Origin: Candidatus Spongiisociaceae bacterium | Lineage (GTDB): Bacteria > Actinomycetota > Acidimicrobiia > Spongiisociales > Spongiisociaceae | Length of the DNA: 64,000 nt | Direction of reading: 5' to 3' | NCBI GenBank assembly: GCA_965219685.1 | Contig: CBDCOH010000002.1 | Coordinates: forward strand, 2,048,001-2,112,000 | Program-made: the position numbers and the translations under genes | The notes under the pieces: model-generated | Database searches by the model: none | Told to the model about the DNA's origin: nothing | The model's input: only the letters and a program-made list of their open reading frames with translations | Shown: positions 17,996 to 48,964 of the stretch, in pieces | Layout of the letters: every line of letters begins with the position of its first letter | How positions within the stretch are numbered: the stretch's first letter is position 1

Positions 17996-19279
17996 TCAGG
18001 CTCCCAGCATTGCCAGTGGAACAACCGCCACGCCGTCAGGACGCTCGTAGCAGTACCTTCCACCGGTGATCACCACCAACCGAGCGATGCCTGCAGCCCG
18101 TTGCTCGGCGACACGATCTCGAAGCTTGAGCAACGCCTGGGCTGCCGAATCGATGGCGGAGGCGGAACCCAACTTCACTTCTGCGGCGATCCATCGACCG
18201 TCAGCGGTTTCGACCACCGCGTCGGCTTCGAGACCGTAGGTGTCCCGGTAGTGGTATACGGAAGCGTCGGTCGCCTGGGCGTAGATGCGCAGATCGCGGA
18301 CCGCCATGGACTCGAACAGGAAGCCGAATGCGTTCAGGTCATCGAGATATCGCTGCGGGCCCGCACCGGAAGCGGCGGCCGCCAGGGACGGATCCACGAG
18401 GTGGCGCTTGGGAGAGCGGATCAGGCCGGCCCGTGACCTGAGGTGCGTGTTCCAGGCGGGCAGATCCTCCACCACGAACAGACGAGTGAGCACGTCCAGG
18501 TACGTCTTCACCGTGGTGCGGTTCAAAGGGACTTCGCCTCCCGTCTCGGCTGCGAGCTTCCGGAGACCGGCGGTAGTGGAGACGTTACGGGCCAGCGACC
18601 GTATCAGGCGCATCACTCCTGTGGGGCTGCGGCGGATGCCGTCCACCGCCGAGACGTCCACCCGGCAGATGTCGTCCAGGTAGTCGCGGGTGAAGCGCCG
18701 AGCCTCCGCCATCGGTGTGTCGACGAGTTGGGGCCACCCACCGCGGCAGGCCGCCTCGACAAGCTCCGGAACCTCCACTCCCGACTCGCCGGGAGAGATC
18801 GCCCGGCCGTCCAGCATCTCCCGGAGTGAGACCTCGCCTGTGGACAGTCCCGTTTCCCGGAGCGACATGGGACGCATGCGCACCCGGCTGATACGGCCGG
18901 CGCCCGAATGGCGGGTCAACTCGTCTGCGGGAACGGCGGAACCCGTGAGTATGAACTGACCTGGGCGACCGCGACGGTCGCAGACAGCCCTCACCAGGTG
19001 CCAGAGTTCGGGGACCCGCTGCCATTCGTCCAGCAGGCGGGGGGTGGCACCGTCCAGCAGGAGTCCCGGAAGATGGGGAGCGATCTCCCAGAGGTCAGGG
19101 CGCTCCTCCAGGAATATCTCGCTCCGGGCGAAGTGTTGTCCCGTCCACGTCTTGCCACAGGCCTTAGGACCTTCTACCAGTACGGCTCGCGCCGAACGCA
19201 GAGCGATCGGTACTTCCGCATCCACGACCCGATCGAGGTAGATGCGCTCAGGAGTTGTGGGGCTTGGAGTTGAGAGCAA
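17996..19279 (-). CDS. AAA ATPase with DUF4143 domain
   Basis: GPKACGKT, LLDEWQ, FILTGS, HSGAGR, GGWP, EADAVV..AAEVK. Confidence 0.9.
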   Translation of the reverse strand: MLSTPSPTTPERIYLDRVVDAEVPIALRSARAVLVEGPKACGKTWTGQHFARSEIFLEERPDLWEIAPHLPGLLLDGATPRLLDEWQRVPELWHLVRAVCDRRGRPGQFILTGSAVPADELTRHSGAGRISRVRMRPMSLRETGLSTGEVSLREMLDGRAISPGESGVEVPELVEAACRGGWPQLVDTPMAEARRFTRDYLDDICRVDVSAVDGIRRSPTGVMRLIRSLARNVSTTAGLRKLAAETGGEVPLNRTTVKTYLDVLTRLFVVEDLPAWNTHLRSRAGLIRSPKRHLVDPSLAAAASGAGPQRYLDDLNAFGFLFESMAVRDLRIYAQATDASVYHYRDTYGLEADAVVETADGRWIAAEVKLGSASAIDSAAQALLKLRDRVAEQRAAGIARLVVITGGRYCYERPDGVAVVPLAMLGA

Positions 19280-19310
19280 CGGCTGCCTCGTATTGCCGGG
19301 GGATCTGAGC

Positions 19311-19410
19311 CATCCTACAGTTTTCCGGCCTTTATCCTACAGTTTTCCGGTGCTCCATCCTACACTTTTCAGGTATCTCATCCTACGATAATCAGGCATC
19401 TCAGCCTACC
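19311..19410. repeat. Five tandem 22-23 bp repeats upstream of the DUF4143 ATPase
   Basis: ATCCTAC at 19312, 19334, 19357, 19380 and AGCCTAC at 19403; first two units share ATCCTACAGTTTTCCGG. Confidence 0.9.
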
Positions 19411-19521
19411 GATCTTATAGGCAGCAAGTTCCCGGGACCCGGACCACTCCTTGGCCGTGGTCTCTACAACGGAAGGATGGGCTCGCACCGGACCATCGGG
19501 TCTCGGCGCGAACGCCGGGAT

Positions 19522-19899
19522 TCAGGAAGGGACTACCGCCACCAAGTCTATCTCGACCATGATGCCGAGCAGGTTGCTGCCGACCGTGGTACGGACGGGC
19601 TTGGGATCTCCGAACCGTCGCTCGTAGACGCTGTTGAAGGCCGCGAAGTCGCCCAGGTCCTGGAGGTGGACCGTTGCCTTGACCGCGTGGTCGAGGCTGG
19701 TACCGGCCGCCTCCAGAACGGCACTGAGATTGTTGATGGTCAGTTCCGTCTGCTCTTCGATGGTGTCGCCGACGATCTGCCCTGTGTCCGGATCAAGCGG
19801 ACCCATTCCAGCTGTGAACACGAGGTTGCCGACCCGAATACCTTGCGAATAGGGCCCCATCGGCGGGGCCGACGAGTCACTGCGGATTTCTTCTTTCAT
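19522..19899 (-). CDS. ridA: RidA/YjgF family imine deaminase
   Basis: GPYSQG, FNSVY, PVRTTV, VEIDLVA. Confidence 0.88.
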   Translation of the reverse strand: MKEEIRSDSSAPPMGPYSQGIRVGNLVFTAGMGPLDPDTGQIVGDTIEEQTELTINNLSAVLEAAGTSLDHAVKATVHLQDLGDFAAFNSVYERRFGDPKPVRTTVGSNLLGIMVEIDLVAVVPS

Positions 19900-19999
19900 A
19901 TCGCTTCCATCACTCCCGGATGCTAGCTATCTGCGATCTGCTTCGGCTCGCCCGGCACGCGCGCCCCGGCGCCTCTGCACCGAGCGAGCTTTCGCGACA

Positions 20000-20392
20000 C
20001 TAGTCCCGAGGACCGACAGATCGGATACCGAGCGCTCGGGAAGCCTCCGCCAGACGCTGGTCATAGGTGACGACCGCTTCGAGTTCATCGCCCAACTCCA
20101 GGGCCGCGGCCAGGTGCAGGGCGTCGAGGCTGCGGAGTGTCACGGGCTCGAGCATGGCAGCCCGCTCGCACAGCGCGGTTGACAGTCTCAGCAATGTCAG
20201 GGAGTCGAGCAGTGCTCTCGCCTGGGGCATCTGCTTCGGATCGACCCGTCGGGTTACCCGCAGTAATTCGGTCCTCAGGAGGTCACTGGACACCACCTGG
20301 GCAGCGGTTGCAGCCCACCACGTGCCCATCGCGGTCGACTGCCGCTCGGCAAAGAGGAGCTTCACCGCTGCGGAAGTGTCGAGGTAGAACAC
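20000..20392 (-). CDS. vapC: VapC PIN toxin
   Basis: YLDTSA, LRSLDALHLA, TYDQRL. Confidence 0.92.
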   Translation of the reverse strand: MFYLDTSAAVKLLFAERQSTAMGTWWAATAAQVVSSDLLRTELLRVTRRVDPKQMPQARALLDSLTLLRLSTALCERAAMLEPVTLRSLDALHLAAALELGDELEAVVTYDQRLAEASRALGIRSVGPRD

Positions 20393-20394
20393 GG

Positions 20395-20670
20395 TCAGTA
20401 CCGCTCGGCCTCCCGCATGTCCCCCAATACCTCCGACGCCCCCGGCCGGTCCGGTTGAACCCGAACCGGGCTTGGTAGGTCGCCAGGAGTACGAAGCGGC
20501 GGCCTTGCCAATCCCGAGGCGATCAGAGCCTCGATCCGGCTCGTCTCAAGTGGCACCATGCGGGCAACCGGCCGGCCACGATCCGTAATCGTTACTGGCT
20601 CGCCAGCCGCCACCCTCCTGACCACGGCCGATGCGTTCTGTTTCAGCGCACGTATCCCTAGCTCCACCAT
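20395..20670 (-). CDS. vapB: Phd/YefM-family antitoxin
   Basis: GIRALKQNAS, ITDRGRPVA. Confidence 0.9.
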   Translation of the reverse strand: MVELGIRALKQNASAVVRRVAAGEPVTITDRGRPVARMVPLETSRIEALIASGLARPPLRTPGDLPSPVRVQPDRPGASEVLGDMREAERY

Positions 20671-20689
20671 GTTCTACAATGTAGCACAT
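20669..20689 (-). promoter_or_regulatory. Palindromic TA operator over a leaderless promoter
   Basis: ATGTTCTACA-A-TGTAGCACAT inverted repeat overlapping TACATT -10 and the ATG. Confidence 0.65.
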
Positions 20690-20745
20690 CACGGGCGTCT
20701 GTACGCAGGGCCACGAAGCGATGCGTACGCTCGGACATCGTCCGG

Positions 20746-22272
20746 TCAGTGGAGAGGGCCCGTTACGGCCCCGACCGCCTCTACCAGAGCTTCCTCCTTG
20801 AGGAGTTCCTCGGCTGCCCCGAGCTCCGGTGACAGGATACGATCGGGACCTGGTCCCGGCACGCGGCTTCGCAACAGCTCCACAGCCGCCGCGGTGCCGG
20901 CCGCCGGATCCAGGGGTGCGCGGAGTTCCACGGCCCTTGCGGCGGTGACCCACTCGATTGCCAGGATCCGGCGTAGGTTGTCGATCACCAGGCGGAGTTT
21001 GCGGGCCGCGGACCAGCCCATCGAGACGTGATCCTCCTGCATGGCGGAGGTCGGGTAGGAGTCGACCGAGGCGGGGACGGCCAGTCGACGGTTCTCGGCG
21101 CACATGGCGGCCGCGGTGTACTGGCCGATCATGAGACCGCTGTCGACCCCCGGATCGCCCGCGAGGAAGGGCGGCAGACCGTGCGAGCGGTTGTGATCGA
21201 GGAGGCGGTCGAGGCGTCGCTCGGCGATGGCCCCGACCTCGGCCAGTGCGATCGCCAGGTAGTCGGCCGCCAAGGCGACGGGCGCACCGTGGAAGTTGCC
21301 GCACGATTCGACCCTTCCGTCGGGCAGGACCATCGGGTTGTCGATCGCCGATGCCAGTTCCCGGTCGGCCACGCCCGCCACGAACTCGAGGGTGTCCCGG
21401 GCCGCCCCGTGGACCTGGGGTGTGCACCGGATCGAGTACGCGTCCTGAACCCGCAGGTCGCCTTGGCGGTGGCTGGCGACGATCGGAGAGCCCGCGAGCA
21501 TGGCCCGGAGATTGGAGGCGCTGCGCGCCTGGCCCGGATGGGGCCTCAAAGCCTGAAGGTCGGCCGCGTAGGCCCGGTCGGTGGCGAGGAGCCCCTCGAC
21601 GCTGATGGCCGCCACGATGTCGGCGACTTTGAGCAGGTAGGAGGCGTCATGAACCGCCAGGCACAGCATGCCCAGTATCCCGTCCGTACCGTTGGTCAGG
21701 GCCAGGCCCTCCTTCTCGGCCAGCACCACCGGCTCGATTCCCCTCCTCGCCAGGACCCCGGCAGCCTGCTCCGGGCCTTCGTCGGTGACCACCTCGCCCT
21801 CACCGATGAGGGCCAGGCCTACATGTGCCAGCGGGGCAAGATCGCCGCTGGCGCCCAGCGAGCCATGCTCCGGGACCCGGGGCACGATCCCGGCGTTCAG
21901 GAGACGGATGAGTCCCTCGGCTACCAGCGGCCGGGCTCCGGAGAAGCCGAGCGCCAGGGTACGCGCCCGGAGGAACATCATCGCCCGTACTACTTCGGGC
22001 GCCACGTCCGGACCCATCCCGGCGGCGTGGGAGCGGATCATCGAGCGCTGCAGGTCGGCCCTCCGGTCGGTCGGGATCGTGGTCGTCGCCAGAGCGCCGA
22101 AACCGGTCGTTATCCCGTATGCCGGTGCACCCTCGGAGAGTTGCTCGACGATGGAGCGGGCAGCCCTCATGCGCTCCGTTGCCGCATCGGCGAGCAGCAC
22201 CGTCTCACCGTGGCGGGCAACGCCGACCACATCCGGGATCGTCACTCCCGGACCCTCGAGCAACACGCTCAT
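20746..22272 (-). CDS. hutH: Histidine ammonia-lyase
   Basis: YGITTGFG, RSH, GASGDLAPL (MIO), QDAYSIRC, GNFHG, QEDHVSMG. Confidence 0.96.
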   Translation of the reverse strand: MSVLLEGPGVTIPDVVGVARHGETVLLADAATERMRAARSIVEQLSEGAPAYGITTGFGALATTTIPTDRRADLQRSMIRSHAAGMGPDVAPEVVRAMMFLRARTLALGFSGARPLVAEGLIRLLNAGIVPRVPEHGSLGASGDLAPLAHVGLALIGEGEVVTDEGPEQAAGVLARRGIEPVVLAEKEGLALTNGTDGILGMLCLAVHDASYLLKVADIVAAISVEGLLATDRAYAADLQALRPHPGQARSASNLRAMLAGSPIVASHRQGDLRVQDAYSIRCTPQVHGAARDTLEFVAGVADRELASAIDNPMVLPDGRVESCGNFHGAPVALAADYLAIALAEVGAIAERRLDRLLDHNRSHGLPPFLAGDPGVDSGLMIGQYTAAAMCAENRRLAVPASVDSYPTSAMQEDHVSMGWSAARKLRLVIDNLRRILAIEWVTAARAVELRAPLDPAAGTAAAVELLRSRVPGPGPDRILSPELGAAEELLKEEALVEAVGAVTGPLH

Positions 22273-22982
22273 CCCATCCCCCTCCCGGGGGACAGCGCCT
22301 GGGAGGTCTTGACGGCCGCATCCACCACGGCCTCGGCGCTCACGCGCAGCCGCCTCCCCACCAACCGCTCGGCAGGTCCCAGGACCGAGAACGCCCCCAC
22401 GATTCCCGCCGTCCCGTAGACGGGTGCAACGACCGCGGTCACATCAGGTTCGATGGCCCCCGTGTTGAAGAACGGGCTGGGGGGAGAACCGGGGCTCCCC
22501 GATTCGCTCGTGAGGGCGTCGCCCACTGCGGTACCGGCGATCGGCACCGACCTGCCGACCCATCCGACATGGCGGATGGCGCGGCTGCTCTCCACGGTCG
22601 CGATATAGACCGCCTCGCTCCCGTCCCTGACCGCCAGATAGGCGGACTCTTCGGTCACATCGGCCAGCCACTGGAGAGCCGGTTGGGCCGCCGCGGTGAG
22701 CCGGGCGTACGGGCCTGTATGGAAAGCGGCCAGGGCGAGCCGCACGAAGCTCGGTCCCACCGAGTACCTGCCGAAATCGTCCCGGACCAGGTAACCGCGG
22801 CCGGTCAGGACCCGTAGGTGGCGTAGCGCCGTGCTGACCGGTATCCCCGTGGCGGCAGCCGCGTCGGACAGGCCGATCCCACCCTCGGTCACCACCGTAT
22901 CGAGAAGGCTCAGGACCCTCCCCGCCGAGCGCGAAGCATGAAGCGGCGACCCGGACCCGCCTGCGGATCGAGTACTGCTCAC
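22269..22982 (-). CDS. IclR-family regulator
   Basis: N-terminal HTH; TEESAYLAV, TAVG effector domain. Confidence 0.88.
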   Translation of the reverse strand: MSSTRSAGGSGSPLHASRSAGRVLSLLDTVVTEGGIGLSDAAAATGIPVSTALRHLRVLTGRGYLVRDDFGRYSVGPSFVRLALAAFHTGPYARLTAAAQPALQWLADVTEESAYLAVRDGSEAVYIATVESSRAIRHVGWVGRSVPIAGTAVGDALTSESGSPGSPPSPFFNTGAIEPDVTAVVAPVYGTAGIVGAFSVLGPAERLVGRRLRVSAEAVVDAAVKTSQALSPGRGMG

Positions 22983-23014
22983 AGTGCGTCGATCAGATGT
23001 CTGGTTCGTCTGCG

Positions 23015-23073
23015 TTTCATATTCTGAAAAGCCATTCTAGTTGTTGACAGACTAGAGCCTACTCCACTAATCT
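23015..23073. promoter_or_regulatory. IclR-type operator and hutU promoter
   Basis: TTTCA-N5-TGAAA palindrome at 23015-23029; TTGACA(23044)-N18-TAATCT. Confidence 0.6.
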
Positions 23074-23129
23074 TCAAGCAGTATTTCGCCCCTGCCTATT
23101 TCCATCCGCGTCGATCTGTGAGGTCTCCG

Positions 23130-24821
23130 ATGACCGCTAAGCGCCAAGAGAGTTCAGGTGCACCTCCGGGGGGCGTGCGCGCCCCGGTCGGCACCTCGTT
23201 GACCTGCCTCGGATGGCCACAGGAGGCGGCCTTCCGGATGTTGCAGAACAACCTCGATCGCGAGGTCGCCGAAAGGCCCGACGACCTGGTGGTGTACGGC
23301 GGCACCGGACGGGCCGCCCGGTCGTGGGACGCATACCACGCGATGATCCGGACGCTCACGACACTCGCCCGCGACGAGACGATGCTCGTCCAGTCGGGCA
23401 AACCCGTCGGCGTCCTCCGCACCCATGAGTGGGCGCCGCGGGTGCTGCTCGCCAACTCCAACCTGGTGCCGGACTGGGCCGACTGGGACGAGTTCAGGCG
23501 CCTCGAACACCTCGGCTTGACGATGTACGGACAGATGACAGCCGGCTCATGGATCTACATCGGGACCCAGGGCATCCTGCAGGGCACCTACGAGTGCTTC
23601 GCCGCCATCGCTCGCAAGCGGTTCGGCGGGTCCCTGGCCGGAACCCTCACCGTAACGTCGGGGCTGGGAGGCATGGGCGGCGCCCAGCCCCTGGCGATAA
23701 CCATGAACGACGGGGTCGCCCTGTGCATCGAGGTGGATCCCGACCGGGTTGACCGCCGTCTCGCGACCCGCTACCTCGACGTGGTCGCCGACGACTACGC
23801 GGACGCTATCCGGCGTTGCTCCGAGGCGGTGGCCGCCCGACGGCCCCTGTCGGTGGGTCTGGTCGGCAACGCGGCCGACCTGGTGCCGCGTCTCCTGGAC
23901 GACGGGGTACCCGCCGACATAGTGACCGACCAGACCCCCGCTCACGATCCGCTGAGCTATGTCCCGGACGGCCTGTCCACGGACGAGGCCGACGAGTTGC
24001 GCACCAAGAAGCCCGACGAGTACATCGTCCGCTCCCGAGCCGCCATGGTCGCCCACGTGGAGGCCATGGTCGGGTTCCTGGACGCCGGAGCAGAGGTGTT
24101 CGACTACGGGAACAGCTTGCGGGCCGAAGCCGAACTCGGCGGGTATGACCGGGCCTTCGCCTATCCCGGATTCCTGCCCGCATATATCCGTCCGTTGTTC
24201 TGCGAGGGCAAGGGACCGTTCCGCTGGGTGGCGCTGTCCGGAGATCCCGCCGACATAGCGGCGACCGACCGGGCGGTCCTCGATGAGTTCCCCGACGACG
24301 AAGGGCTCCGGCGTTGGATCACCCTGGCCGGGGAACGGGTCGCCTTCCAGGGTCTTCCCGCCCGGATCTGCTGGCTGGGCTACGGCGAGCGTCACCGGCT
24401 GGGGCTGCGGTTCAACGACATGGTCCGCACCGGGGAACTGAAGGCACCGATCGTGATCGGGCGCGACCATCTCGACTCCGGGTCCGTGGCCTCACCGTAC
24501 CGGGAGACCGAGGACATGGCGGACGGCAGCGACGCCATCGCCGACTGGCCCCTTCTCAACGCAATGGTCAACACCTCCTCCGGGGCATCTTGGGTCAGCA
24601 TCCACCACGGAGGCGGGGTCGGCATCGGCCGGTCCATCCATGCCGGGCAGGTGTGCCTGGCCGACGGAACCGACCTCGGTGCCCAGAAGCTGGAACGCGT
24701 CCTGCTCAACGATCCGGCCACCGGCGTCATCAGGCATGTCGACGCCGGTTACGAACTCGCCGGTCGGGTTGCCGCCGACCGGGGGGTGCGCGTTCCGATG
24801 GCAGAAGTGGACCCCCGTTAG
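23130..24821 (+). CDS. hutU: Urocanate hydratase
   Basis: [44 protein letters not shown]. Confidence 0.97.
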
Positions 24822-26362
24822 TGGCCGGGCGGCGCCGCCGGGGCGGGCGCCGCGCCCGCATCGCAGAGCGCGGCCCCTCAAACCCTCAGCGCCCCTTCCG
24901 CCAGCCCCGTCTCCCCTGGCACCCGGTGTCCGCCATCACCGACGACCGGCTCGAAGCCATCCATGAGGCGTCCCTGCGGGTCCTTCGCGACGTCGGCATG
25001 GATATGCTGCACCACGAGGCCAGGACGATCCTCCGCCGGGAAGGCGCAGATGTCGATCCCGACTCTGCCCGGGTGCGGTTCGACCCCGAGATGGTCACCG
25101 AACTCGTCGGCTGCGCGCCCGACGAGTTCACCCTGCATGCTCGCAATCCCTCGCATCACATCCACCTGGGCGGCCGCTCCGTTGCGTTTACGGCGGTGGC
25201 CAGTCCTCCCAACGTCTCCGGCCTGGGCCGAGGCCGGCGCAGCGGTAACCGGGAAGACTTCCGACAACTCGTTCGCCTGAGCCAGCACCTGAACGTCGTC
25301 CACCTGCACGGTGGGTACCCGGTGGAACCCACCGACATCCATCCATCCGTCCGTCACCTCCACGCCACCCTCGACCTACTCACCCTCAGCGACAAGGCCA
25401 TCCATACCTACAGCCTCGGACGGCAGCGGACTCTGGACACCATCGAGATGGCCCGAATAGCCCGCGGGATAAGCCACGAAGACCTGGACACCCAGCCTTC
25501 GATCTACACGATCGTCAACACGTCGTCGCCGCTGCGCCTCGACACCCCCATGATCGAGGGGATCCTCGAACTGTCGGCCCGCAACCAGCCGGTTGTGATA
25601 ACCCCGTTCACGTTGGCGGGTGCGATGGCTCCGGTGACGATCGCCGGGGCCCTCGTACAGCAGAACGCCGAGGCCCTGGCCGGGATCGCGCTAACCCAAG
25701 CCGTGCGCCGCGGGGCACCCGTGGGCTACGGCGGGTTCACCTCCAACGTCGACATGCAGTCCGGCGCGCCCGCCTTCGGCACCCCCGAGTACCTGCAGGC
25801 TGCGCTCATCGGCGGCCAACTGGCACGGCGCTACCGCCTTCCTTACCGGTCGTCGAATGCCAACGCTTCCAACGCCGTGGACCTCCAGGCCACCTACGAG
25901 AGCATGTTCTCGCTCTGGGGCGCGGTGATGGGCGGCGCCAACCTGGTGCTTCATGCGGCGGGATGGCTCGAAGGGGGGCTGCGCGCCTCCTTCGAGAAGA
26001 TGGTTCTCGACGCCGAGATGCTGCAGATGATCTGTGCTGCGCTCGAGCCGCCGGTGGTCGACGAGGGCTCCCTGGCGGTCGACGCGATCGCGGACGTGGG
26101 TCCGGGCGGCCACTTCTTCGGTACCGCCCATACGCAGGCCCGCTACCGGGAAGCCTTCCACACGCCGCTCCTGTCCGACTGGAGCAACTTCGAGACATGG
26201 GCCGAGGCAGGACGGCCCGACCCGGGCCAGCGAACCGTGTCCCTCGCCAGGGAGTTCCTGGACTCCTACCGGCCGCCTCCCATGGACCCCGCCATCCGCG
26301 AGGAACTCGAGGAGTTCGTCGCCCGCCGGGTCGGCGAGGGCGGCATAGCCACCGACTACTGA
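24821..26362 (+). CDS. MttB-superfamily (non-pyrrolysine) methyltransferase
   Basis: NTSSPLRLD, TPFTLAGAMAPVT, SNVDMQSGAPAFGTPE, HAAGWLEGGL, GPGGHFFG. Confidence 0.92.
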   Translation: MAGRRRRGGRRARIAERGPSNPQRPFRQPRLPWHPVSAITDDRLEAIHEASLRVLRDVGMDMLHHEARTILRREGADVDPDSARVRFDPEMVTELVGCAPDEFTLHARNPSHHIHLGGRSVAFTAVASPPNVSGLGRGRRSGNREDFRQLVRLSQHLNVVHLHGGYPVEPTDIHPSVRHLHATLDLLTLSDKAIHTYSLGRQRTLDTIEMARIARGISHEDLDTQPSIYTIVNTSSPLRLDTPMIEGILELSARNQPVVITPFTLAGAMAPVTIAGALVQQNAEALAGIALTQAVRRGAPVGYGGFTSNVDMQSGAPAFGTPEYLQAALIGGQLARRYRLPYRSSNANASNAVDLQATYESMFSLWGAVMGGANLVLHAAGWLEGGLRASFEKMVLDAEMLQMICAALEPPVVDEGSLAVDAIADVGPGGHFFGTAHTQARYREAFHTPLLSDWSNFETWAEAGRPDPGQRTVSLAREFLDSYRPPPMDPAIREELEEFVARRVGEGGIATDY

Positions 26363-26372
26363 GAGGAGTGGA

Positions 26373-27050
26373 GTGAAACCCGTTCGCTACCGTCCCGTCC
26401 GGCTTCGCGTCGACGAGGATCCCGCCGGCCATCCGTGCGCCGATCTCCGCCACTACGAAGCCGATCTAACCGTGCTCAACAACGTGCTCCGGGATCTGCG
26501 AGCACTCCTCCGCCAAGCCGTGACGGCCAGGACGGTTCTCCATCCCTACCAGATGGTGTCCTGGCAGGAGGATGGACTGCAGCGCAGGATCGTCATATGC
26601 GATCCGGCGGCCCTGCTGAAGGACGCGGACGTGTTGATCGTCGGATTCCTCGGGAACAGGCGGTCGACCGAGGAGGCCAAACTGGTTGACGAGTTCGACT
26701 TCGACGTGATCTCCGAGTTCCGGCAGTACCCGGGAATACTCAGCTACAGCTCCACGGAACTGATCCCCAACCAGTGGGCGAACCTGGTGGTCCACCAGGA
26801 GGTATCGGACCGGGAAGCCTGGCGCCACAGTGCGGTCCACATAGAAGCGGCTGAGGAACTGTCCCCCAGGGTCTTCCACAGCGTCCGCATCCACAACGGA
26901 CGGCTGCTCGGAGGTCCGATCAGTGACGCCAGAGTGACAGTCGAGGTCACCAAGTACTGGGATTACGACGCGGATCCGATGTGGCACGCCATCCGGACCC
27001 TCCCGGGAGGCATCACGACCGCCGCGCACCCCCGGTGGGGTCCCCGATGA
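26373..27050 (+). CDS. Hypothetical protein (possible ferredoxin-like/ABM fold)
   Basis: 225 aa, GGAG RBS, ATGA overlap with def; WANLVV..W..S.VH pattern. Confidence 0.7.
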   Translation: MKPVRYRPVRLRVDEDPAGHPCADLRHYEADLTVLNNVLRDLRALLRQAVTARTVLHPYQMVSWQEDGLQRRIVICDPAALLKDADVLIVGFLGNRRSTEEAKLVDEFDFDVISEFRQYPGILSYSSTELIPNQWANLVVHQEVSDREAWRHSAVHIEAAEELSPRVFHSVRIHNGRLLGGPISDARVTVEVTKYWDYDADPMWHAIRTLPGGITTAAHPRWGPR

Positions 27051-27616
27051 CGGTTCGCCCGATACTCTCCGTCGGCAACCCGACGTTGCGGGTGCGGGCA
27101 ACGGAAGTACCACGCGAGGATATTGGGTCCCAGGCCGTCCAGGACCTGATCGACGACCTGATCGACACCATGCGGCATGCCAATGGCTCCGGGATCGCCG
27201 CCAACCAGGTAGGCGAGACCGTCCGGATCATGGTGATGGAGGTGGACCGGAACCCCCGTTACCCCTACAAGCCGCCGATTCCCCTGACGGTGGCCATCAA
27301 TCCCCGGTTCGAACCGCTCGGCGAAGAGACGGTGATCATCAACGAAGGATGCCTCTCGGTCCCGTTGCGGGGGGAGCTGGAGCGCTGGGTCAACCTCCGG
27401 GTCCGCTACACCGACCGGTCCGGGATCGACCACGAGCAGGTGCTTCGCGGTCTCACCGCCGGCACCTGGCAACACGAGTGCGATCACCTGGACGGGACCC
27501 TGGTGGTCGACCGGATCGATTCGACCACGCTGGCGACATGGGACGAGTTCGACGTCCACCACCGCGATGCCTTCGTCGAGCGGATAACCCGCTTCGTCGC
27601 GGAGGTGGGCTCGTGA
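27047..27616 (+). CDS. def: Peptide deformylase homolog
   Basis: GSGIAANQ, EGCLS, QHECDH. Confidence 0.93.
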   Translation: MTVRPILSVGNPTLRVRATEVPREDIGSQAVQDLIDDLIDTMRHANGSGIAANQVGETVRIMVMEVDRNPRYPYKPPIPLTVAINPRFEPLGEETVIINEGCLSVPLRGELERWVNLRVRYTDRSGIDHEQVLRGLTAGTWQHECDHLDGTLVVDRIDSTTLATWDEFDVHHRDAFVERITRFVAEVGS

Positions 27617-28980
27617 CCAGCTGGTACTGGTGCGAGCTGGCGTGGCTCGGCGGTGATCGGGCCACCCGCGGCGTCGTCATCGAGGTCGAAGGCGACCGCA
27701 TGGCCTCGGTCACCTCAGGGCACGTCGCCCCTCCCCCCGATGCCGTCGCGCTGGCGGGACTCACGATCCCGGCCCTGGCCAACGCCCACAGCCACGCGTT
27801 CCACAGGGCGCTGCGGGGCCGTACCCAGGGCGGGAGGGGAACCTTCTGGACGTGGCGCGAGCTCATGTACGGGGTGGCGTCGAACCTGGACCCGGAGAAC
27901 TACTACCGGCTCGCCCGGGCGACCTTCGCCGAGATGGCGCTGGCCGGAGTGGGGGTGGTCGGCGAGTTCCACTACGTCCACCACCGGCCCGGAGGGGATC
28001 CGTACGACGATCCGAACGCCATCGCGATGAGCCTGGCAACCGCCGCCAGGGACGCCGGGATCCGCCTGACCCTGCTCGACACGCTGTACCTGCATGGAGG
28101 GTTCGCCCCCGGCTCCGCAACCGGGTACGCCCCGCCCACCGCCGAGCAGGCCCGCTTCACGGACGGATCCGCCGAGGCCTGGACCCGGCGCGTGGAGAGC
28201 TTGGCGCTGGCGGCGCCGGGTCCTCTCACGAAGGTGGGCGCGGCGGTTCACTCGGTGCGGGCGGCGGACCCGGCGTCGATCTCGGTCGCGGCCGGATGGG
28301 CCGGCCGGAACGGGTTACCGCTCCACGTTCATGTCTCGGAGCAGCCGGCCGAGAACGAAGCCTGCCTGGAGGTCCACGGCCGGACCCCGACCGCGGTGCT
28401 GGCCGGCGCGGGCGCGCTCGGCCCGGATACCACCCTGATCCATGCGACTCACCTCTCCGATGCTGATCTGGCCACGATCGGCGGAGCAGGGGCACTTTGC
28501 TGTATCTGTCCCACCACGGAGCGGGACCTGGCCGACGGCATCTCCCCCACCGGAGAGCTGGTCCGGACCGGGGCGGCCCTGTGCGTGGGATCGGACTCCC
28601 ACGCCGTCATCGACATCCTGGAAGAGGCTCGCGCCGTGGAGCTGGGCCAGCGGGTCCTGACCAACCGGAGGGGGACCCACCCGCCCGGAACGCTCGCCGC
28701 CATCGCCACCGCCAACGGATACCGGTCACTCGGTTGGAAACAGGGAGGCGTCATCCAGCCGGGATCCCTCGCCGATTTCACCAGCGTGGGCCTGGACTCT
28801 GTGCGACTCGCCGGGATCGATACGGACAATGCCTTGGCCGCGGTGATGTTCGCGGCCTCCGGCACCGACGTGCACAGCCTCGTCGTCGGGGGCAGGCCGG
28901 TAGTTGTCGACGGCGCCCATGTCTCGATCGACGTGGCGGGCGAACTCGGCTCGGCGATCGCCAAGGTGGTGACGGCGTGA
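27613..28980 (+). CDS. hutF: Formimidoylglutamate deiminase
   Basis: [41 protein letters not shown]. Confidence 0.94.
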
Positions 28981-30176
28981 CGGTGGTGGTCGACAACATC
29001 GGTGAGCTGGTAACCAATTCCCCCGAACTCGGGGCGGGGCCGCTGGGGATCGTCGAGAACGCGTCGGTCGTGATCGCCGGCGGCGTCGTGGTCGCGATCG
29101 AACCCGCGGGGGCGATCGCAGACGAGCGCCTCGACGTGGGGGGTAGGTGCGTCCTGCCCGGCTTCGTGGACTCCCACACCCACCTGGTCTTCGCAGGTGA
29201 CCGGGCGGAGGAGTTCACCCGCCGCATGGCCGGTGAGCACTACGACGGCGGCGGGATCAGAGTGACTACCGAGGCCACCCGTTCAGCAGGTCCGGAAGCC
29301 TTGCGGGCGGGACTGGCCCGGCGCCTCGAGGAAGTCCGGCGCGCCGGCACCACAACCGTGGAGATCAAGTCGGGGTACGGGCTGTCGGTCGAGTCCGAGG
29401 CAGAGACCACCTCCCTGGCGGCCGAGGTGACCGCCGAGACCACCTTCATGGGCGCCCATGTGGTCCCGACCGAGTACCTGGGCAGGACCGACGACTACGT
29501 CGACCTGGTGCGCGGACCGATGCTCGAAGCCGCTCGACCCCACGTTCGCTGGATCGACGCCTTCTGCGAGCAGGGGGCGTTCGACGCCGACCAGTCGAGG
29601 GCGGTGCTCGAGGCAGGTCGTGAAGCAGGCCTGGGTCTACGCCTCCACGCCAACCAGCTCGACCACGGGCCCGGGGTGCAGCTGGGCGTGGAGATGGGTT
29701 GCGCGTCCGTCGACCACTGCACCTACCTGTCCGACGGCGACATCGAGGCCCTGGCAGGGAGCGACACCGTGGCGACCTTCCTGCCCGCGGCGGACTTCTC
29801 CACGCGCCAGCCCTACCCCGACGCCCGCCGCGCCATCGACGCCGGAGTCACCGTGGCGATCGCCTCCAACTGCAATCCGGGATCGAGCTACACCACCTCC
29901 ATCTCGTTCTGCATCGCGCTTGCCGTGCGTGACATGAACATGACCATCGACGAGGCGATCGCCGCCGCGACCACCGGCGGGGCGACGACGCTGCGGAGAA
30001 CCGATGTCGGGCGGCTCGTTCCCGGCGGTCCGGCTCACCTCGCCGTCCTCGACGCGCCGAGCCGGCACCACCTCGCCTACCGGCCGGGTGTGCCGCTGAT
30101 CTGGCGGACACTCGGCTCCGACTACGTACGACCATCCACCGAGCAAAGAACCCGAAGGAGAAAGGCACGCCCATGA
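28977..30176 (+). CDS. hutI: Imidazolonepropionase
   Basis: [37 protein letters not shown]. Confidence 0.95.
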
Positions 30177-31630
30177 ACCTCCCCAACCCAACCGGACACA
30201 ACCAGTGGTACCCGTTCGCCAACCGCCCCCTGCCTCCCGAGGTCGACGGCTGCGCGGTCAACCCGGCGGCGATACCGGTCTTCGATTCCATGCCCCTGCC
30301 GCGCAGCGCCCGCTTCGTGGTGGTCGGAGCCGGTGTCCATGGCCTATCGAGTGCCTACCACCTGGCCATGTATCTCGAGCGATCGGGCATGGGCAAGGGC
30401 AGCGACGTGGTGCTGATCGACAAGCAGGGCCCGGGCGCCGGCGCCACGGGCCTGGCCTGCGGATGCGTGCGCAACCTCTACATGACCAACCCGCTGCACG
30501 CCATCCTGCGCGCCAGCGTGGAAGTGTGGGAGTCCGATCCCGTGAACTTCGGATTCCAGCAGGTCGGCTACGTATCGGTCGGCGAAGCGAACCAGTATGA
30601 GGACTACATCGAACTCCACGCCTCCCAGGCGGCCAGCGGATACCCGTCAGACCTCTACACGGGATCGGACGCGCACGCCTTCCTGACCAAGCTGTGGCCC
30701 GACTTCAAGACCGAGAACTGCGACGTGGTGCTCCACGAGCACCGCTCCGGATACGCCGGTACGCACATCGCCGTGTGGGGCCTCGACCAGAAGTGCCGCC
30801 AGTGGGGCGTGCAGCGTGTCTACGGGACCACGGTCACCGGCTACGAGCGGGACGCGGCGGGCTCCGTCACCGCGGTCGAGACCGACCACGGATCGATCTC
30901 CTGCGACCACGTGGTCGTCGGCGCCGGGGCGTGGACACCCCAGCATTGGGAGTGGCTCGGGGGACCGTCACACCTCGACGTTCTCTACCCCGACGGTCAC
31001 GTCGAGGAGCAGATGGACATGTGGACCTACTGGCGCCTCCTCGAAGGCGAAGTCATCCTTCCCGAGGGCGTGGACTTCCGGACCGCCCAGTACCGGGACT
31101 CGCCTGTCCTGCACGTGGAGCTCCTGGACACGCCGGTCTACGGCGAGGACGGGACGATGATCAAGGACCACACCTACGTGTACACGCGCTACGCGGCCGA
31201 GCGGGTGGGCGCTCCCGGCCTCCAGGGCGGGACGATCCCCATCAAGATAGGACCCCGAGCGGAGGTCGAGCCCTACGGCCACCTCAACGACCTCTACCAG
31301 GCGGAAGAATGGTTCGCCGACTACTACTGCTCCGCCCTGGGCATGCTCTTCAAGCGGCTCGAGAACCTGAGGCCCTACTTCAAAGACCGCCGGAACGGTG
31401 GGATCGGCGCGTTCACGCCCGACAACGTGCCCGTGTTCGACCATCTGGCCGACAACGCATGGGTGATCGCCGACTCCAACCACGGTTTCAAGATGATCGG
31501 CGTCGGCAAGCTGACCGCTCAGATGCTCGTCTACGGAGAGAAGCCCGACGAGTTGAAGCCGTTCACGCTCGACCGGTACCGCACCGGCAGCACGTTCGGG
31601 GACCGGAACTCGAACAGCCCGTGGGTATAG
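30173..31630 (+). CDS. FAD-dependent oxidoreductase, N-methylglutamate dehydrogenase A / SoxB-like
   Basis: [47 protein letters not shown]. Confidence 0.8.
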
Positions 31631-31828
31631 GAAGGTACTGAGAGACCCCTTGCGAGAGGGTTCGCGCGGAAGTCGCCCGCCCGCAGGCCAGGTCGTGTCC
31701 GGTGAGAGAACCCCGCAGGTCTCGTGTCCCGGTACCCTCTTGGGGTGGTCGGCAACCCTACGGCGAGAGCAGGTCCATCGGTGAGGTAGGCCGGACTGCC
31801 GGACCGCGAGCAGGAGGGGTGGTACTCC

Positions 31829-32635
31829 TTGAACACCCAACCCGATGCACCTGTAAGGGCTGCAACCTACCTGGGCGAGAACAGCCTGCCCATCATGGAC
31901 GATCTGGTTCAGTACCTGTCAGTGGCGACCGGCATCGATGTGGTCGTCGATCCCGCAGCAGCCAGAAGTACGGCCGAGGCATGCCGGCAGGCCCCCAAGC
32001 TGGATCTCGTGTGGATGTGCGGGTACCCGACCGCGTTTCTCATCTCGACGGGCCGGACAACCCACGAGGTCGTAGCCGCGCCCGTCTTCGCCGGATACAG
32101 GCAGCCTGTCTACCACTCGGTGATCATCACCCGGGTGGACGGTCCCTCGTCTCTCCATGTCGCGCTGGAAACAAGGCTGGCGGTGAACGAGCTCGAGTCC
32201 TGGTCCGGGTTTCTGGGGCTCAAAGCCCATGTCGAACGGTCTTTCCCCGGTGCCTGGTTCGCCGATCAGGCAGTCACCGGTTCGCATCGGGCCTCGATCC
32301 AGGCTGTGGCGGATCAGGTGTGTGACGTCGCGGCCATCGACGTCACGATCTGGGAGCACCTACTGGCGACGGAACCGGCGGCAGCCACAGACCTCCGTGT
32401 CGTCGACCGAACCGTAGACTGGCCGGCGCCACCCTTCAGCATCGCTTCGCACCTCGACCCCACGGTGCGAGAGTGCCTCACCGCGGCCCTAACCGCGGTC
32501 GGACCGGCAGACGTACCGTTGCTCGACGGCGTCGCACCGGCCGACTGCGATATCTACCGGGAGGTGATGCTTGCCCGATCAGGTATGGCTCCGAGTTCGT
32601 TGATCCTCCAAGCGCGAGACGCTGACCGGAAGTGA
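31829..32635 (+). CDS. PhnD-like substrate-binding fold protein, no signal peptide
   Basis: WMCGYP, YHSVII, SWSG, TGSHRASI, DVAAID. Confidence 0.75.
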   Translation: MNTQPDAPVRAATYLGENSLPIMDDLVQYLSVATGIDVVVDPAAARSTAEACRQAPKLDLVWMCGYPTAFLISTGRTTHEVVAAPVFAGYRQPVYHSVIITRVDGPSSLHVALETRLAVNELESWSGFLGLKAHVERSFPGAWFADQAVTGSHRASIQAVADQVCDVAAIDVTIWEHLLATEPAAATDLRVVDRTVDWPAPPFSIASHLDPTVRECLTAALTAVGPADVPLLDGVAPADCDIYREVMLARSGMAPSSLILQARDADRK

Positions 32636-32687
32636 TGGCTATTGTCGTCGCTCCGCTGATGGTCGAGACCGGAACATCGCACTCTCG

Positions 32688-34262
32688 CTACGGATCGGTG
32701 GTCGGTTCGATACGCACGGGACGGCGGACTTTCTTCCCGTTCAACATCGTTCCGATCGGGGTGTAGCGGACCAGGAACTGATAGCTCAGCAGGAGAAACG
32801 CTGTGACCACCACGGAGATCATCAGAAACTTGGCCTCCGCCGGCACGTCCCAGTCCCGCACGATCGCCTGCGCGAGCACCACCACCGGGAGGTGGGCGAG
32901 GTACATCCAGTACGAGGAGTCGGAGAGGTAGCGGACGCCCCGACGTTCCCCGGGAATCAACACCCGGAACAACCCGATCAGGCCGAGGCACATCCCCCAT
33001 GCGTAGGCCACCTGGAGGACCGACGCCACCGGCCAGGAGAAGAGCTCCGGCTCGAAAGTGACGGCGAGCCCGGCCGGTAGAACGACCACGAAGGAGACGG
33101 GCAGGAAGAGCCACCACGGTCTCCCGACCGTGTCGACCAACTCCGTGCCGCTACGGCCACGGCGCCGGTACATGAGAGCCCCGAACGCGAAGAACGTGGT
33201 GTAGTAGACCAGGACGTGGGGTAGCGGGACGAAACCGTCCGACGTGTCGGGTCCGAAGACGGGATAGGCGCCGCCTCCGCCCATGGACAGCTGCGGGACG
33301 ATCGTAAGGGGGATCATCGACCACATGACCCACCGCGGCCACCTCGCCTGCCGGCTGGCTTGGGCAGTCCGGCGCTCCGCCACCCAGGCCACCAAAGCGA
33401 AGCCTGCCACGAGCCACAGGAGGAACCAGAGGAACCAGAGGTGATAGAAACGTTGGATGGAGGACAGGTCCAGCCCGTCGGCCGCGTCGTTGTCCTCCTC
33501 CCGGTCGGCGGCGCCGGCTCCCCAACCCGGGACCTCCGCCCACTCCATCCCTTCGGGCAGTGGTTCCCCACCCCCGTAGGAGACCAGCAGGTCGGCAGCC
33601 TCCCCATGGCCGAAGTGGAAAGCCACCCCGAGGGGCGTCTCACCTTCCGAGGCGGTGGCCACCGGCGCCGGCTCGGCACCGCGCGCGAGCAGCAACTCCA
33701 CCATCCCGGTGTCCCCCGTGAAGGCCGCGGCGTGGAGTAGCGTCCAACCGCCCGGATCGCTGCGGAGGTCGACGTCGAATCCCCGGTCGAGCAGCTGCTC
33801 CACCCCCGCCACATCTGCGGTGAAGACCTTCCCCCAGATGTCATCGTCGGCGACCTGCGGTGCAGGCGCGGACTCCACCGCCCAGTCACCGACGAAGGTG
33901 GTCAGCGGAACGATCGTGAGCAGCCCGACCAATAGCGGGAGGGCAACCCGCCGCAGCCGATGGCTGAGCAGCGCGCCGAGACCGCGGCGTCGCCACAGAA
34001 GGGCGGTGAAGAACCCGCTCATCAGGAAGAACACCGGCATCCGGAAACCGTGGACAGCCCAAAGGAACTCGTCGAACAGCCCGTCGAGACTCGACGTGCG
34101 GTCCTGCACCCACCAAGGCGCCGGGAAGAATGCCAGGGAGGTATGGAGGCCGATACCGAGCAGCATGGCGAACCCCCGCAGAGCGTCGAGGTCGTACCGG
34201 CGACGCTCCACGGACCTGATGTCCGGGGATGGCGGTTCCAACGAAGTCAAGGGAGTAGGCAC
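32688..34262 (-). CDS. Acyltransferase_3 (OpgC/MdoC-like) with ankyrin-repeat insert
   Basis: DLDALR, FRMPVFFLMSGFF, HLWFL, SYWMYLAH; GWTLLHAAA and GETPLGVA ankyrin motifs. Confidence 0.85.
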   Translation of the reverse strand: MPTPLTSLEPPSPDIRSVERRRYDLDALRGFAMLLGIGLHTSLAFFPAPWWVQDRTSSLDGLFDEFLWAVHGFRMPVFFLMSGFFTALLWRRRGLGALLSHRLRRVALPLLVGLLTIVPLTTFVGDWAVESAPAPQVADDDIWGKVFTADVAGVEQLLDRGFDVDLRSDPGGWTLLHAAAFTGDTGMVELLLARGAEPAPVATASEGETPLGVAFHFGHGEAADLLVSYGGGEPLPEGMEWAEVPGWGAGAADREEDNDAADGLDLSSIQRFYHLWFLWFLLWLVAGFALVAWVAERRTAQASRQARWPRWVMWSMIPLTIVPQLSMGGGGAYPVFGPDTSDGFVPLPHVLVYYTTFFAFGALMYRRRGRSGTELVDTVGRPWWLFLPVSFVVVLPAGLAVTFEPELFSWPVASVLQVAYAWGMCLGLIGLFRVLIPGERRGVRYLSDSSYWMYLAHLPVVVLAQAIVRDWDVPAEAKFLMISVVVTAFLLLSYQFLVRYTPIGTMLNGKKVRRPVRIEPTTDP

Positions 34263-47269: not shown

Positions 47270-48913
<1,644 letters not shown>

Positions 48914-48964
48914 CCCGGCAGGCGCGTACACCGCGACGGATACCCGCCACTCGATGGAGTCCCT

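Follow-up and report, generated by a model that had tools for sequence, protein, structure and literature searches.

A histidine-utilization operon with a candidate two-stage demethylation module and a hut-associated deformylase paralogue in marine Acidimicrobiia

We analysed the histidine-utilization (hut) locus of a Candidatus Spongiisociaceae bacterium (class Acidimicrobiia), located in a 64,000-nucleotide stretch of contig CBDCOH010000002.1 (positions 2,048,001 to 2,112,000; assembly GCA_965219685.1). This whole stretch is hereafter the window, and positions refer to it. The genome comprises 4.42 Mb and is estimated to be 96.7 % complete. The core of the locus spans 20746–31630, and a tenth conserved gene extends it to 32635. 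The ten genes were delimited from frame composition and the listing of open reading frames (ORFs), and were named by Pfam and NCBIfam profile scores against curated cut-offs. Nine of them, with a plus-strand run from hutU to dao divergent from iclR–hutH, had been named in an earlier note made from the sequence, and the profile scores and our reading of the junctions confirmed that layout. The features are as follows.

20746..22272, minus strand: hutH, histidine ammonia-lyase, 508 aa (TIGR01225, 643 bits, cut-off 539)
22269..22982, minus strand: iclR, IclR-family regulator, 237 aa (PF09339 and PF01614)
22983..23129: intergenic region between the divergent iclR–hutH and hutU; presumed promoter/operator, from position only
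23130..24821, plus strand: hutU, urocanate hydratase (TIGR01228, 882.5 bits, cut-off 375)
24821..26362, plus strand: mttB, MttB-superfamily (MtgB-like, non-pyrrolysine) quaternary-amine methyltransferase, 513 aa (PF06253, 636.6 bits)
26373..27050, plus strand: unk, 225 aa protein with a double ferredoxin-like (ABM-type) fold (no Pfam or NCBIfam family)
27047..27616, plus strand: def, peptide-deformylase paralogue, 189 aa (PF01327, 138.7 bits)
27613..28980, plus strand: hutF, formimidoylglutamate deiminase, 455 aa (NF006681, 577 bits, cut-off 362; TIGR02022, 441 bits, cut-off 413)
28977..30176, plus strand: hutI, imidazolonepropionase, 399 aa (TIGR01224, 334.7 bits, cut-off 298)
30173..31630, plus strand: dao, DAO-family FAD flavoprotein, 485 aa (PF01266, residues 48–259 only)
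31829..32635, plus strand: pbp, binding-protein-fold gene, approximately 268 aa (PF12974, 94 bits), beginning 198 nt past dao

The run from hutU to dao contains five overlapping junctions and a single 10 nt gap, exactly as the earlier note had described. The TAG stop of hutU and the GTG start of mttB have one nucleotide in common, which places the mttB start at 24821 rather than 24818. The 10 nt gap between mttB and unk holds a GAGGAG-like site, and the unk/def, def/hutF, hutF/hutI and hutI/dao junctions are 4 nt overlaps (ATGA or GTGA). On the minus strand the iclR stop overlaps the hutH start (ATGA). The hutU frame is open from a GTG at 23118, but the ATG at 23130, which is preceded by GAGG, is the more likely start. 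A sigma-70 consensus scan of 20400–33000 returned no promoter-like sites, and the same scan yielded two terminator-like sites, not above shuffled sequence. An Rfam scan of 19000–34000 gave no match, and hence no cobalamin or other riboswitch was detected.

In the five-step Hut pathway, as in Pseudomonas, histidine is degraded by HutH, HutU, HutI, HutF and HutG, and the pros nitrogen of the imidazole ends as the glutamate nitrogen. The HutH, HutU, HutI and HutF sequences of the window all exceeded their NCBIfam equivalog cut-offs, and HutU did not reach those of the thiourocanate hydratase models. HutH and HutU are single-copy in the genome, where this is the only histidine-utilization operon. 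HutH retains an intact Ala-Ser-Gly triad at residues 141–143 together with Tyr52 and His82; the triad, from which the MIO cofactor is formed, and the roles of the Tyr and His in substrate contact are described in the excerpted text of bioRxiv 10.1101/2025.08.13.670108. Fixed changes specific to the clade carrying the expanded operon were few (none in HutH, one in HutU, none in Def, two in HutF and two in HutI), and HutI of this clade carries an additional short clade-specific insertion near its C-terminus. As judged by alignment, no clade-specific change in the Hut enzymes is at a known catalytic residue.

The last step of the pathway appears to be served differently. No match to the FGase family of HutG (PF05013) was found in the window genome, at its estimated completeness of 96.7 %, and def stands within the operon. 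For comparison across the class we surveyed an even sample of 300 other Acidimicrobiia genomes together with the window genome (301 in all). hutF was found in 42 of these, and 40 of the loci were compared. A deformylase paralogue 50–65 % identical to the window def occurred in 27 of the 40, and in all 27 it directly adjoined hutF, hutU or hutI, in at least three gene orders. Because of this adjacency, and because the window genome lacks a detectable HutG, we regard def as a core Hut gene of Acidimicrobiia. The genome contains one other def elsewhere, 37 % identical to the operon copy. The operon Def falls below the TIGR00079 cut-off (94.7 versus 104), and its translation displays GSGIAANQ, EGCLS and QHECDH, which we take to be the three metal-binding or catalytic motifs of deformylases. 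FGase was present in three of ten other hutF-bearing genomes of the class, never beside hut genes. Two of these three are among five genomes that have a def-like gene near hutF, and the third is among five that lack one, so that no clean complementary pattern emerged. In place of HutG, Def most likely converts the HutF product N-formylglutamate to glutamate and formate. We consider this the most solid new proposal of the analysis; no paper that connects hut with a homologue of peptide deformylase came up in our literature search.

These comparisons also changed what counts as an addition to the operon. The earlier note had treated def as part of an expansion of the locus, which was not borne out, since def is standard in Acidimicrobiia hut operons (the same 27 of 40 loci). 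Against a baseline of hutU–def–hutF–hutI, the true additions are mttB–unk, between hutU and def, and dao plus pbp, after hutI; they therefore occupy two separate insertion points. An IclR-like gene adjoins hutH in four of 40 other Acidimicrobiia hut loci, and also in locus L137.

To map the additions we used the MttB protein as query against species-representative genomes and compared 80 loci, with 10 kb on each side. The order hutU–mttB–unk–def–hutF–hutI–dao–pbp recurred in seven (L004–L010), each from another species-level genome, with MttB identities of 71–89 %. At the other 73 loci MttB was 60–67 % identical, and hutU, hutF, hutI, def and dao were all out of reach. Four of 80 MttB loci on metagenome contigs were hut-linked (L145–L148), although some of these contigs are near-identical to loci from metagenome-assembled genomes and so are not independent. 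One of them holds a variant operon (L148:609-3553) in which hutF directly follows unk, with no deformylase gene between. HutF identity among the hut-linked loci descends to 53–57 %, and the coupled junctions are retained across eight species-level genomes. Within the class survey, the expanded arrangement was seen among the 300 other genomes only in G182, the genome of L005. The recurrence of the gene order exceeds chance, and the arrangement is old within its own clade yet taxonomically narrow. Conservation of the neighbourhood in relatives, the check that the earlier note had proposed, thus gave a divided answer: the order does recur, but the linkage is confined to one narrow clade and is absent from 73 genome loci and 76 metagenome loci of the same MttB subfamily. 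Among habitat-labelled DNA runs, those holding at least a quarter of the sampled words were from sponge, coral and marine metagenomes; the public runs matching the stretch were DNA only, with no RNA run listed. The clade comprises marine, host-associated Acidimicrobiia, and the source organism is associated with sponge or coral.

The product of mttB matched PF06253 over its full length (profile positions 1–499 of 500). A pyrrolysine trimethylamine methyltransferase was ruled out: the protein scored 314 bits against the pyrrolysine-enzyme model TIGR02369 (cut-off 525), and the frame is open with no in-frame stop and thus no amber codon, the pyrrolysine position of 7xcl aligning with Ala348. The nearest solved relatives are 4yyc (E = 1e-103), which carries the annotation of a putative trimethylamine methyltransferase, and MtgB of Desulfitobacterium hafniense (9yce), which aligns with residues 38–508 (E = 3.6e-92). 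According to excerpts of PMC13080624, Arg312 and His348 of MtgB bind the carboxylate of the substrate, and Tyr97 and Phe356, a pair not conserved in other betaine methyltransferases of the superfamily, hold the quaternary amine. The first two residues align with Arg344 and His379 of the window MttB, invariant in all 13 hut-linked rows and all 153 other rows of our alignment; Tyr97 and Phe356 are replaced by Ala128 and Gly387, and these positions are non-aromatic across the whole subfamily. The 73 genome loci lacking hut linkage frequently carry a dimethylglycine-oxidase-like gene (60 loci), SoxA (41), SoxB (35) or betaine-aldehyde dehydrogenase (33), and a dimethylglycine-oxidase gene is present at 47 of the 76 metagenome loci of this kind. 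These non-hut loci of the subfamily are glycine-betaine and choline clusters. The earlier suggestion that MttB might demethylate hercynine or N-alpha-methylhistidines therefore stands as far as the carboxylate-binding Arg and His are kept, and is weakened by the glycine-betaine context of the subfamily elsewhere.

In a maximum-likelihood tree the hut-linked MttB proteins formed one clade with a support of 99. Six replacements are fixed in this clade (D135G, N205T, M326L, A356L, V363M and F408A). Residue 408 is aromatic in 151 of the 153 other subfamily rows, and both exceptions (Met or Ile) are L137 (genome G055) and L138 (G131), each with the gene within a few kb of hut. The window genome and five relatives carry no second copy of the subfamily, only paralogues 37–39 % and 27–28 % identical. 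There is no corrinoid protein gene in the window, as had been stated before, and two pairs of B12-binding and Pterin_bind genes were located elsewhere in the genome (C2:457261/458770 and C2:4282009/4284682). The aerobic MtgB of Ruegeria pomeroyi is described, in excerpts of PMC12478193, as working with unlinked MtgC and MtgD. Given these two points, a missing corrinoid gene in the window is probably no obstacle.

Several other loci touch on this subfamily and on betaine metabolism. Outside the window, a large betaine island at C2:412000-465000 carries a further two MttB paralogues, each close to a gene resembling dimethylglycine oxidase, along with OpuAC binding proteins and one pair of corrinoid and pterin-binding genes; other parts of the genome contain two sets of sarcosine-oxidase genes and two creatinase-like genes. 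A histidine ammonia-lyase (HAL) homologue 32–39 % identical to HutH occurs at nine loci of this MttB subfamily, from Chloroflexota or metagenomes (L017, L027, L028, L032, L047, L048, L069, L080 and L181). None of the nine homologues has the Ala-Ser-Gly MIO triad; the catalytic Tyr is conserved in all nine and the imidazole-binding His in eight. In L027, the only one of these loci that was annotated, the HAL homologue (1826-3274, minus strand) adjoins an OpuAC-type betaine ABC importer and lies approximately 7–8 kb from MttB. These MIO-less homologues may be ergothionase- or histidine-betaine-lyase-like.

The second addition, dao, encodes a flavoprotein that the earlier note had called MgdA-like. 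A SoxB-type fold was supported, but membership of the family was not: the soxB model TIGR01373 gave 63.5 bits against a cut-off of 529.45, over residues 48–251 only, and the flanking genes are hutI and the binding-protein-fold gene, with no SoxA-, SoxD- or SoxG-like neighbours. The genome's own SoxB- and SoxA-like genes are far from the operon. The predicted structure (pLDDT 87) had its best Foldseek match in 3ada_B, the beta subunit of heterotetrameric sarcosine oxidase (E = 2.6e-27, TM 0.84, 19 % identity), followed by proline dehydrogenase beta, dimethylglycine oxidase/dehydrogenase and monomeric sarcosine oxidase (15–21 % identity), with TM scores of 0.75–0.80 to the monomeric sarcosine oxidases. 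The translation shows an N-terminal GxGxxG, presumably the FAD-binding motif, and what we read as an HGFK-like motif near the C-terminus. From the modelled fold, the protein probably acts as an N-methyl or secondary-amine oxidase outside the SoxB/MgdA family. Homologues are 63–91 % identical across phyla among the 120 matches listed, some of which are labelled Gammaproteobacteria, Alphaproteobacteria or other Pseudomonadota. Two other candidate identities were considered. A role as a stand-in for sarcosine oxidase was rejected, as all five other flavoprotein-positive genomes tested carry a SoxB-type gene (470–500 bits, just under the cut-off), and we found no evidence to group the flavoprotein in one family with the N-methylproline demethylase HpbA, which the excerpted text of PMC3950512 describes only as flavin-dependent.

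The flavoprotein was found in 12 of the 301 class genomes, together with the MttB subfamily in 11 of the 12 and with Unk in 10. Outside the hut clade it adjoins Unk at three loci and another MttB at one, and further neighbours include enolase-superfamily racemase-like, Rieske oxygenase and small rhodanese genes, sarcosine-oxidase subunit genes and an electron-transfer flavoprotein gene. Zn-dependent alcohol-dehydrogenase-family and formate dehydrogenase genes also adjoin it there, and would fit formaldehyde disposal. At three loci a gene for a 121–124 aa rhodanese-domain protein lies just upstream of the flavoprotein homologue (L087:8837-9202, L091:7659-8024 and L092:8621-8995), with Zn-dependent alcohol-dehydrogenase-family and/or formate dehydrogenase genes nearby. 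Rhodanese and dehydrogenase neighbours of this kind hint that the flavoprotein family is linked to sulfur or formaldehyde.

Of the two remaining additions, Unk matched no family in Pfam or NCBIfam, and its 244 homologues are all unnamed. Its AlphaFold2 model (pLDDT 90.3) displays a double ferredoxin-like, ABM-type fold, with weak Foldseek matches to ABM-fold proteins (best E = 5e-4, TM to target 0.69–0.76 over approximately 97 residues). ESM Atlas look-ups returned only unnamed or generic clusters. Unk was present in 19 of the 301 class genomes, and the MttB subfamily occurs in all 11 whose match was strong (E < 1e-40); in other genomes Unk travels with that subfamily and with the flavoprotein. 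A prediction of the complex between MttB and the ABM-fold protein gave no answer (median score 0.10). The pbp product is nearest to the sensor and binding proteins AioX, ArrX and PtxB (E = 7.7e-14), and no transporter genes adjoin it. No hydrophobic N-terminus was seen in its translation after the upstream stop, and it is probably a cytoplasmic, binding-protein-like protein. The gene was present in all nine hut-linked loci that reach that far, and absent from 40 other hut loci and from 12 other flavoprotein loci.

The data support the presence of what would be a two-stage demethylation module, a methyltransferase followed by a formaldehyde-forming flavoprotein, welded into an otherwise ordinary hut operon. 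The mttB–unk and dao additions, inserted at two points, would belong to one functional toolkit. Gene identities, order, conservation and family contexts were observed; all substrates, and the roles of the ABM-fold and binding-protein-fold genes, are our inferences. In the first stage, a quaternary amine with a carboxylate group would give up one of its methyl groups, which the MtgB-like enzyme would transfer to a corrinoid protein encoded outside the operon and which would then go on to tetrahydrofolate. In the second, the SoxB-fold flavoprotein would oxidize the remaining N-methyl group or groups with release of formaldehyde. The substrate would be histidine betaine (hercynine, N-alpha-trimethylhistidine) or a close analogue, and hercynine would be converted via di- and monomethylhistidine to histidine, for degradation by unchanged Hut enzymes, with no release of trimethylamine. 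Hercynine is the simplest substrate to account for this location; it is glycine betaine with an imidazolylmethyl group, and its full N-alpha demethylation yields histidine. Excerpts of the sources consulted describe histidine betaine as a recognized bacterial substrate, via a trimethylamine-releasing lyase (bioRxiv 10.1101/2025.08.13.670108), and report a hercynine derivative from a sponge (PMC8779493); such a substrate is plausible for this habitat. N-alpha demethylation of histidine betaine to histidine is our best reading of the operon, although we advance it tentatively. We found no paper joining MttB-family enzymes to hercynine, and none describing such an operon.

The distribution of MttB relative to hut provides some further linkage. 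Among 24 class genomes with both the MttB subfamily and hutF, the two were no more than 13 kb apart in five (the window genome, G182, G055, G131 and G288), which represent four genera and three families. This suggests that MttB–hut proximity is commoner than chance. The hut-linked loci also differ in what they lack, a dimethylglycine-oxidase orthologue being present in none of seven compared with 60 of the 73 others, and no close orthologue was found in the window genome (best 44 %) or in G303 (best 36 %). Also in favour of histidine betaine are the sequence signature of the hut-linked MttB clade, with F408A among its replacements, the carboxylate-binding residues that MttB retains, the fold of the flavoprotein, the preserved coupling of the junctions, and the B12-binding and Pterin_bind gene pairs of the genome.

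A number of points weigh against a histidine betaine substrate. In G055, G131 and G288, hut and a pair of MttB and dimethylglycine-oxidase genes are plain neighbours: the pair is 3–9 kb from hutH in G055 (L137) and G131 (L138), and MttB is 90 bp upstream of hutF in G288 (L124). This neighbourhood may reflect a recurring functional tie, or an ancestral proximity that permitted neutral fusion. G301 and G305 keep a 62–71 % identical dimethylglycine-oxidase orthologue elsewhere in their genomes. The subfamily of which the hut-linked MttB is the genome's only orthologue is otherwise found in choline and glycine-betaine contexts, and the stem of the hut-linked clade in the tree is no longer than that of other lineages. 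D135G was rejected as a specificity switch, as Gly also occurs at this position in three dimethylglycine-oxidase-linked MttB genes. EgtD was not found in the genome, such that the substrate would come from outside the cell, and the operon is without an importer. One flavoprotein would have two methyl groups to remove. Finally, flavoprotein copies 86–87 % identical to that of the window (L085 and L086) come from two genomes in which neither hutU nor hutF was detected, and in the flavoprotein tree they fall between two hut-linked groups. Much of this would be accounted for by a composite operon with no shared substrate, in which the MtgB-like enzyme still demethylates a betaine not derived from histidine, be it glycine betaine or another, with the flavoprotein and the ABM-fold protein acting in the same pathway; all of these genes would have entered by rearrangement of two clusters already adjacent to each other and would merely be co-transcribed with hut. 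It is nearly as likely as the histidine betaine reading, and we hold it with only slightly less conviction. The dimethylglycine-oxidase, SoxA, SoxB and betaine-aldehyde-dehydrogenase contexts of the subfamily favour it, as do the proximity of the clusters in G055, G131 and G288, the single subfamily orthologue in six genomes, the lack of a long branch to the hut-linked MttB clade, the flavoprotein orthologues in genomes where hut genes were not found, and the dimethylglycine-oxidase orthologue kept in G301 and G305. Set against these are the placement of betaine genes at two separate positions of one operon, with translational coupling preserved across deep divergence, and the consequence that a hut promoter would then control glycine-betaine demethylation. 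Moreover, the operon never includes the canonical next enzyme, for which no close orthologue was found in at least two genomes, the SoxB-type gene already carried by all five other flavoprotein-positive genomes argues against simple substitution for sarcosine oxidase, and MttB–hut proximity recurs in three families.

Two further explanations appear very improbable, each to a similar degree. The earlier note had proposed that N-pi-methylhistidine is converted by HutH, HutU, HutI, HutF and the deformylase into N-methylglutamate, which would explain the terminal flavoprotein as an MgdA-like enzyme. The chemistry is sound, in that the pros nitrogen becomes the glutamate nitrogen; the flavoprotein fold is SoxB-like, and some homologues are labelled 'methylglutamate dehydrogenase subunit A', an automatic name from one source. 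However, this route requires that every Hut enzyme accept methylated intermediates and that the substrate of the flavoprotein arise only from Hut, and neither is supported. The Hut enzymes display between none and two clade-specific changes each, with Tyr52, His82 and the Ala-Ser-Gly triad of HutH kept; the flavoprotein fails the SoxB/MgdA score (63.5 versus 529 bits) and has no SoxA-, SoxD- or SoxG-like genes adjoining. L085 and L086 lie in genomes that yielded neither hutU nor hutF, which is at odds with N-methylglutamate made by the Hut route as the substrate, and the route leaves no role for a quaternary-amine methyltransferase. Alternatively, the module might demethylate another betaine that yields a Hut end product, for example glutamate betaine to glutamate, with the genes grouped by product. 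The retained carboxylate-binding residues of MttB, a flavoprotein fold suited to N-methyl amino acids generally and the presence of the flavoprotein in genomes where Hut was not found are all compatible with this, but there is no positive sign of such a substrate, no search on glutamate betaine in this habitat having been made, and operons are rarely organized by shared product.

Other features of the window lie outside the operon. Just upstream of hutH, 17996-20392 contains a DUF4143/AAA_14 ATPase gene and a PIN-domain gene; a homologue of the DUF4143 ATPase is also present near the MttB cluster in L060. On the minus strand, 32688-34241 encodes an Acyl_transf_3 membrane acyltransferase with ankyrin repeats inserted at residues ~146–223, a eukaryote-like feature in an apparently host-associated bacterium. 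A RecBCD-type trio occupies 35421-43959, also on the minus strand (RecD-like, 589 aa; RecB-like, 1101 aa; RecC-like, 1134 aa). The G+C content falls to 0.57 at 48000-50000, compared with 0.64–0.70 around it.

Fungi, cyanobacteria and marine invertebrate holobionts commonly contain histidine betaine and ergothioneine, and the bacterial routes for histidine betaine that we found in print release trimethylamine. The operon may represent an undescribed way of stripping methyl groups from histidine betaine. If true, a demethylating route would send the methyl groups into one-carbon metabolism and would add a new substrate class to the MttB superfamily. Demethylation of hercynine is the most interesting proposal of the analysis, and one that we put forward as a possibility still short of probable. 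Taken jointly, a cobalamin-dependent, trimethylamine-free route from hercynine to histidine in a hut operon and Def as the N-formylglutamate deformylase of Acidimicrobiia form a conjunction that we hold a shade more cautiously still. Whatever the substrate of MttB, the deformylase paralogue offers a testable case in which a non-orthologous protein may stand in for HutG throughout a bacterial class. The flavoprotein family, at 63–91 % identity across phyla among the matches listed, is yet without an assigned substrate.

Comparison with known systems places the operon close to several of them. Relative to the five-step Hut pathway, the enzymes of four steps are matched, each in single copy; the window genome differs in having no detectable HutG, a deformylase paralogue in the operon instead, and four extra genes. 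The operon Def has in common with peptide deformylase the PF01327 match and all three motifs, but is a second, hut-tied copy whose proposed substrate is N-formylglutamate rather than nascent peptides. MttB shares PF06253 and the Arg/His pair with the MtgB/MtgC/MtgD system of R. pomeroyi and with MtgB of D. hafniense (2qne, 9yce), and its candidate corrinoid and pterin-binding partners are unlinked, like those of R. pomeroyi. It differs from MtgB in lacking the aromatic pair, in residing in a hut operon and not beside dimethylglycine oxidase, and in its six clade-specific replacements. The flavoprotein has the fold of sarcosine oxidase beta, MgdA, dimethylglycine oxidase and monomeric sarcosine oxidase, but is only 15–21 % identical to such oxidases, has neither partner subunits nor a folate-binding domain, and is approximately 80 residues longer than SoxB. 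A further comparison is with the histidine betaine trimethylammonia-lyase of Shewanella woodyi and ergothionase, described in excerpts of bioRxiv 10.1101/2025.08.13.670108 as MIO-less HAL homologues that release trimethylamine; like the route proposed here, they would channel a histidine betaine toward urocanate and histidine metabolism. In contrast, the window HutH keeps its Ala-Ser-Gly triad, and the entry proposed here would proceed by stepwise demethylation without trimethylamine.

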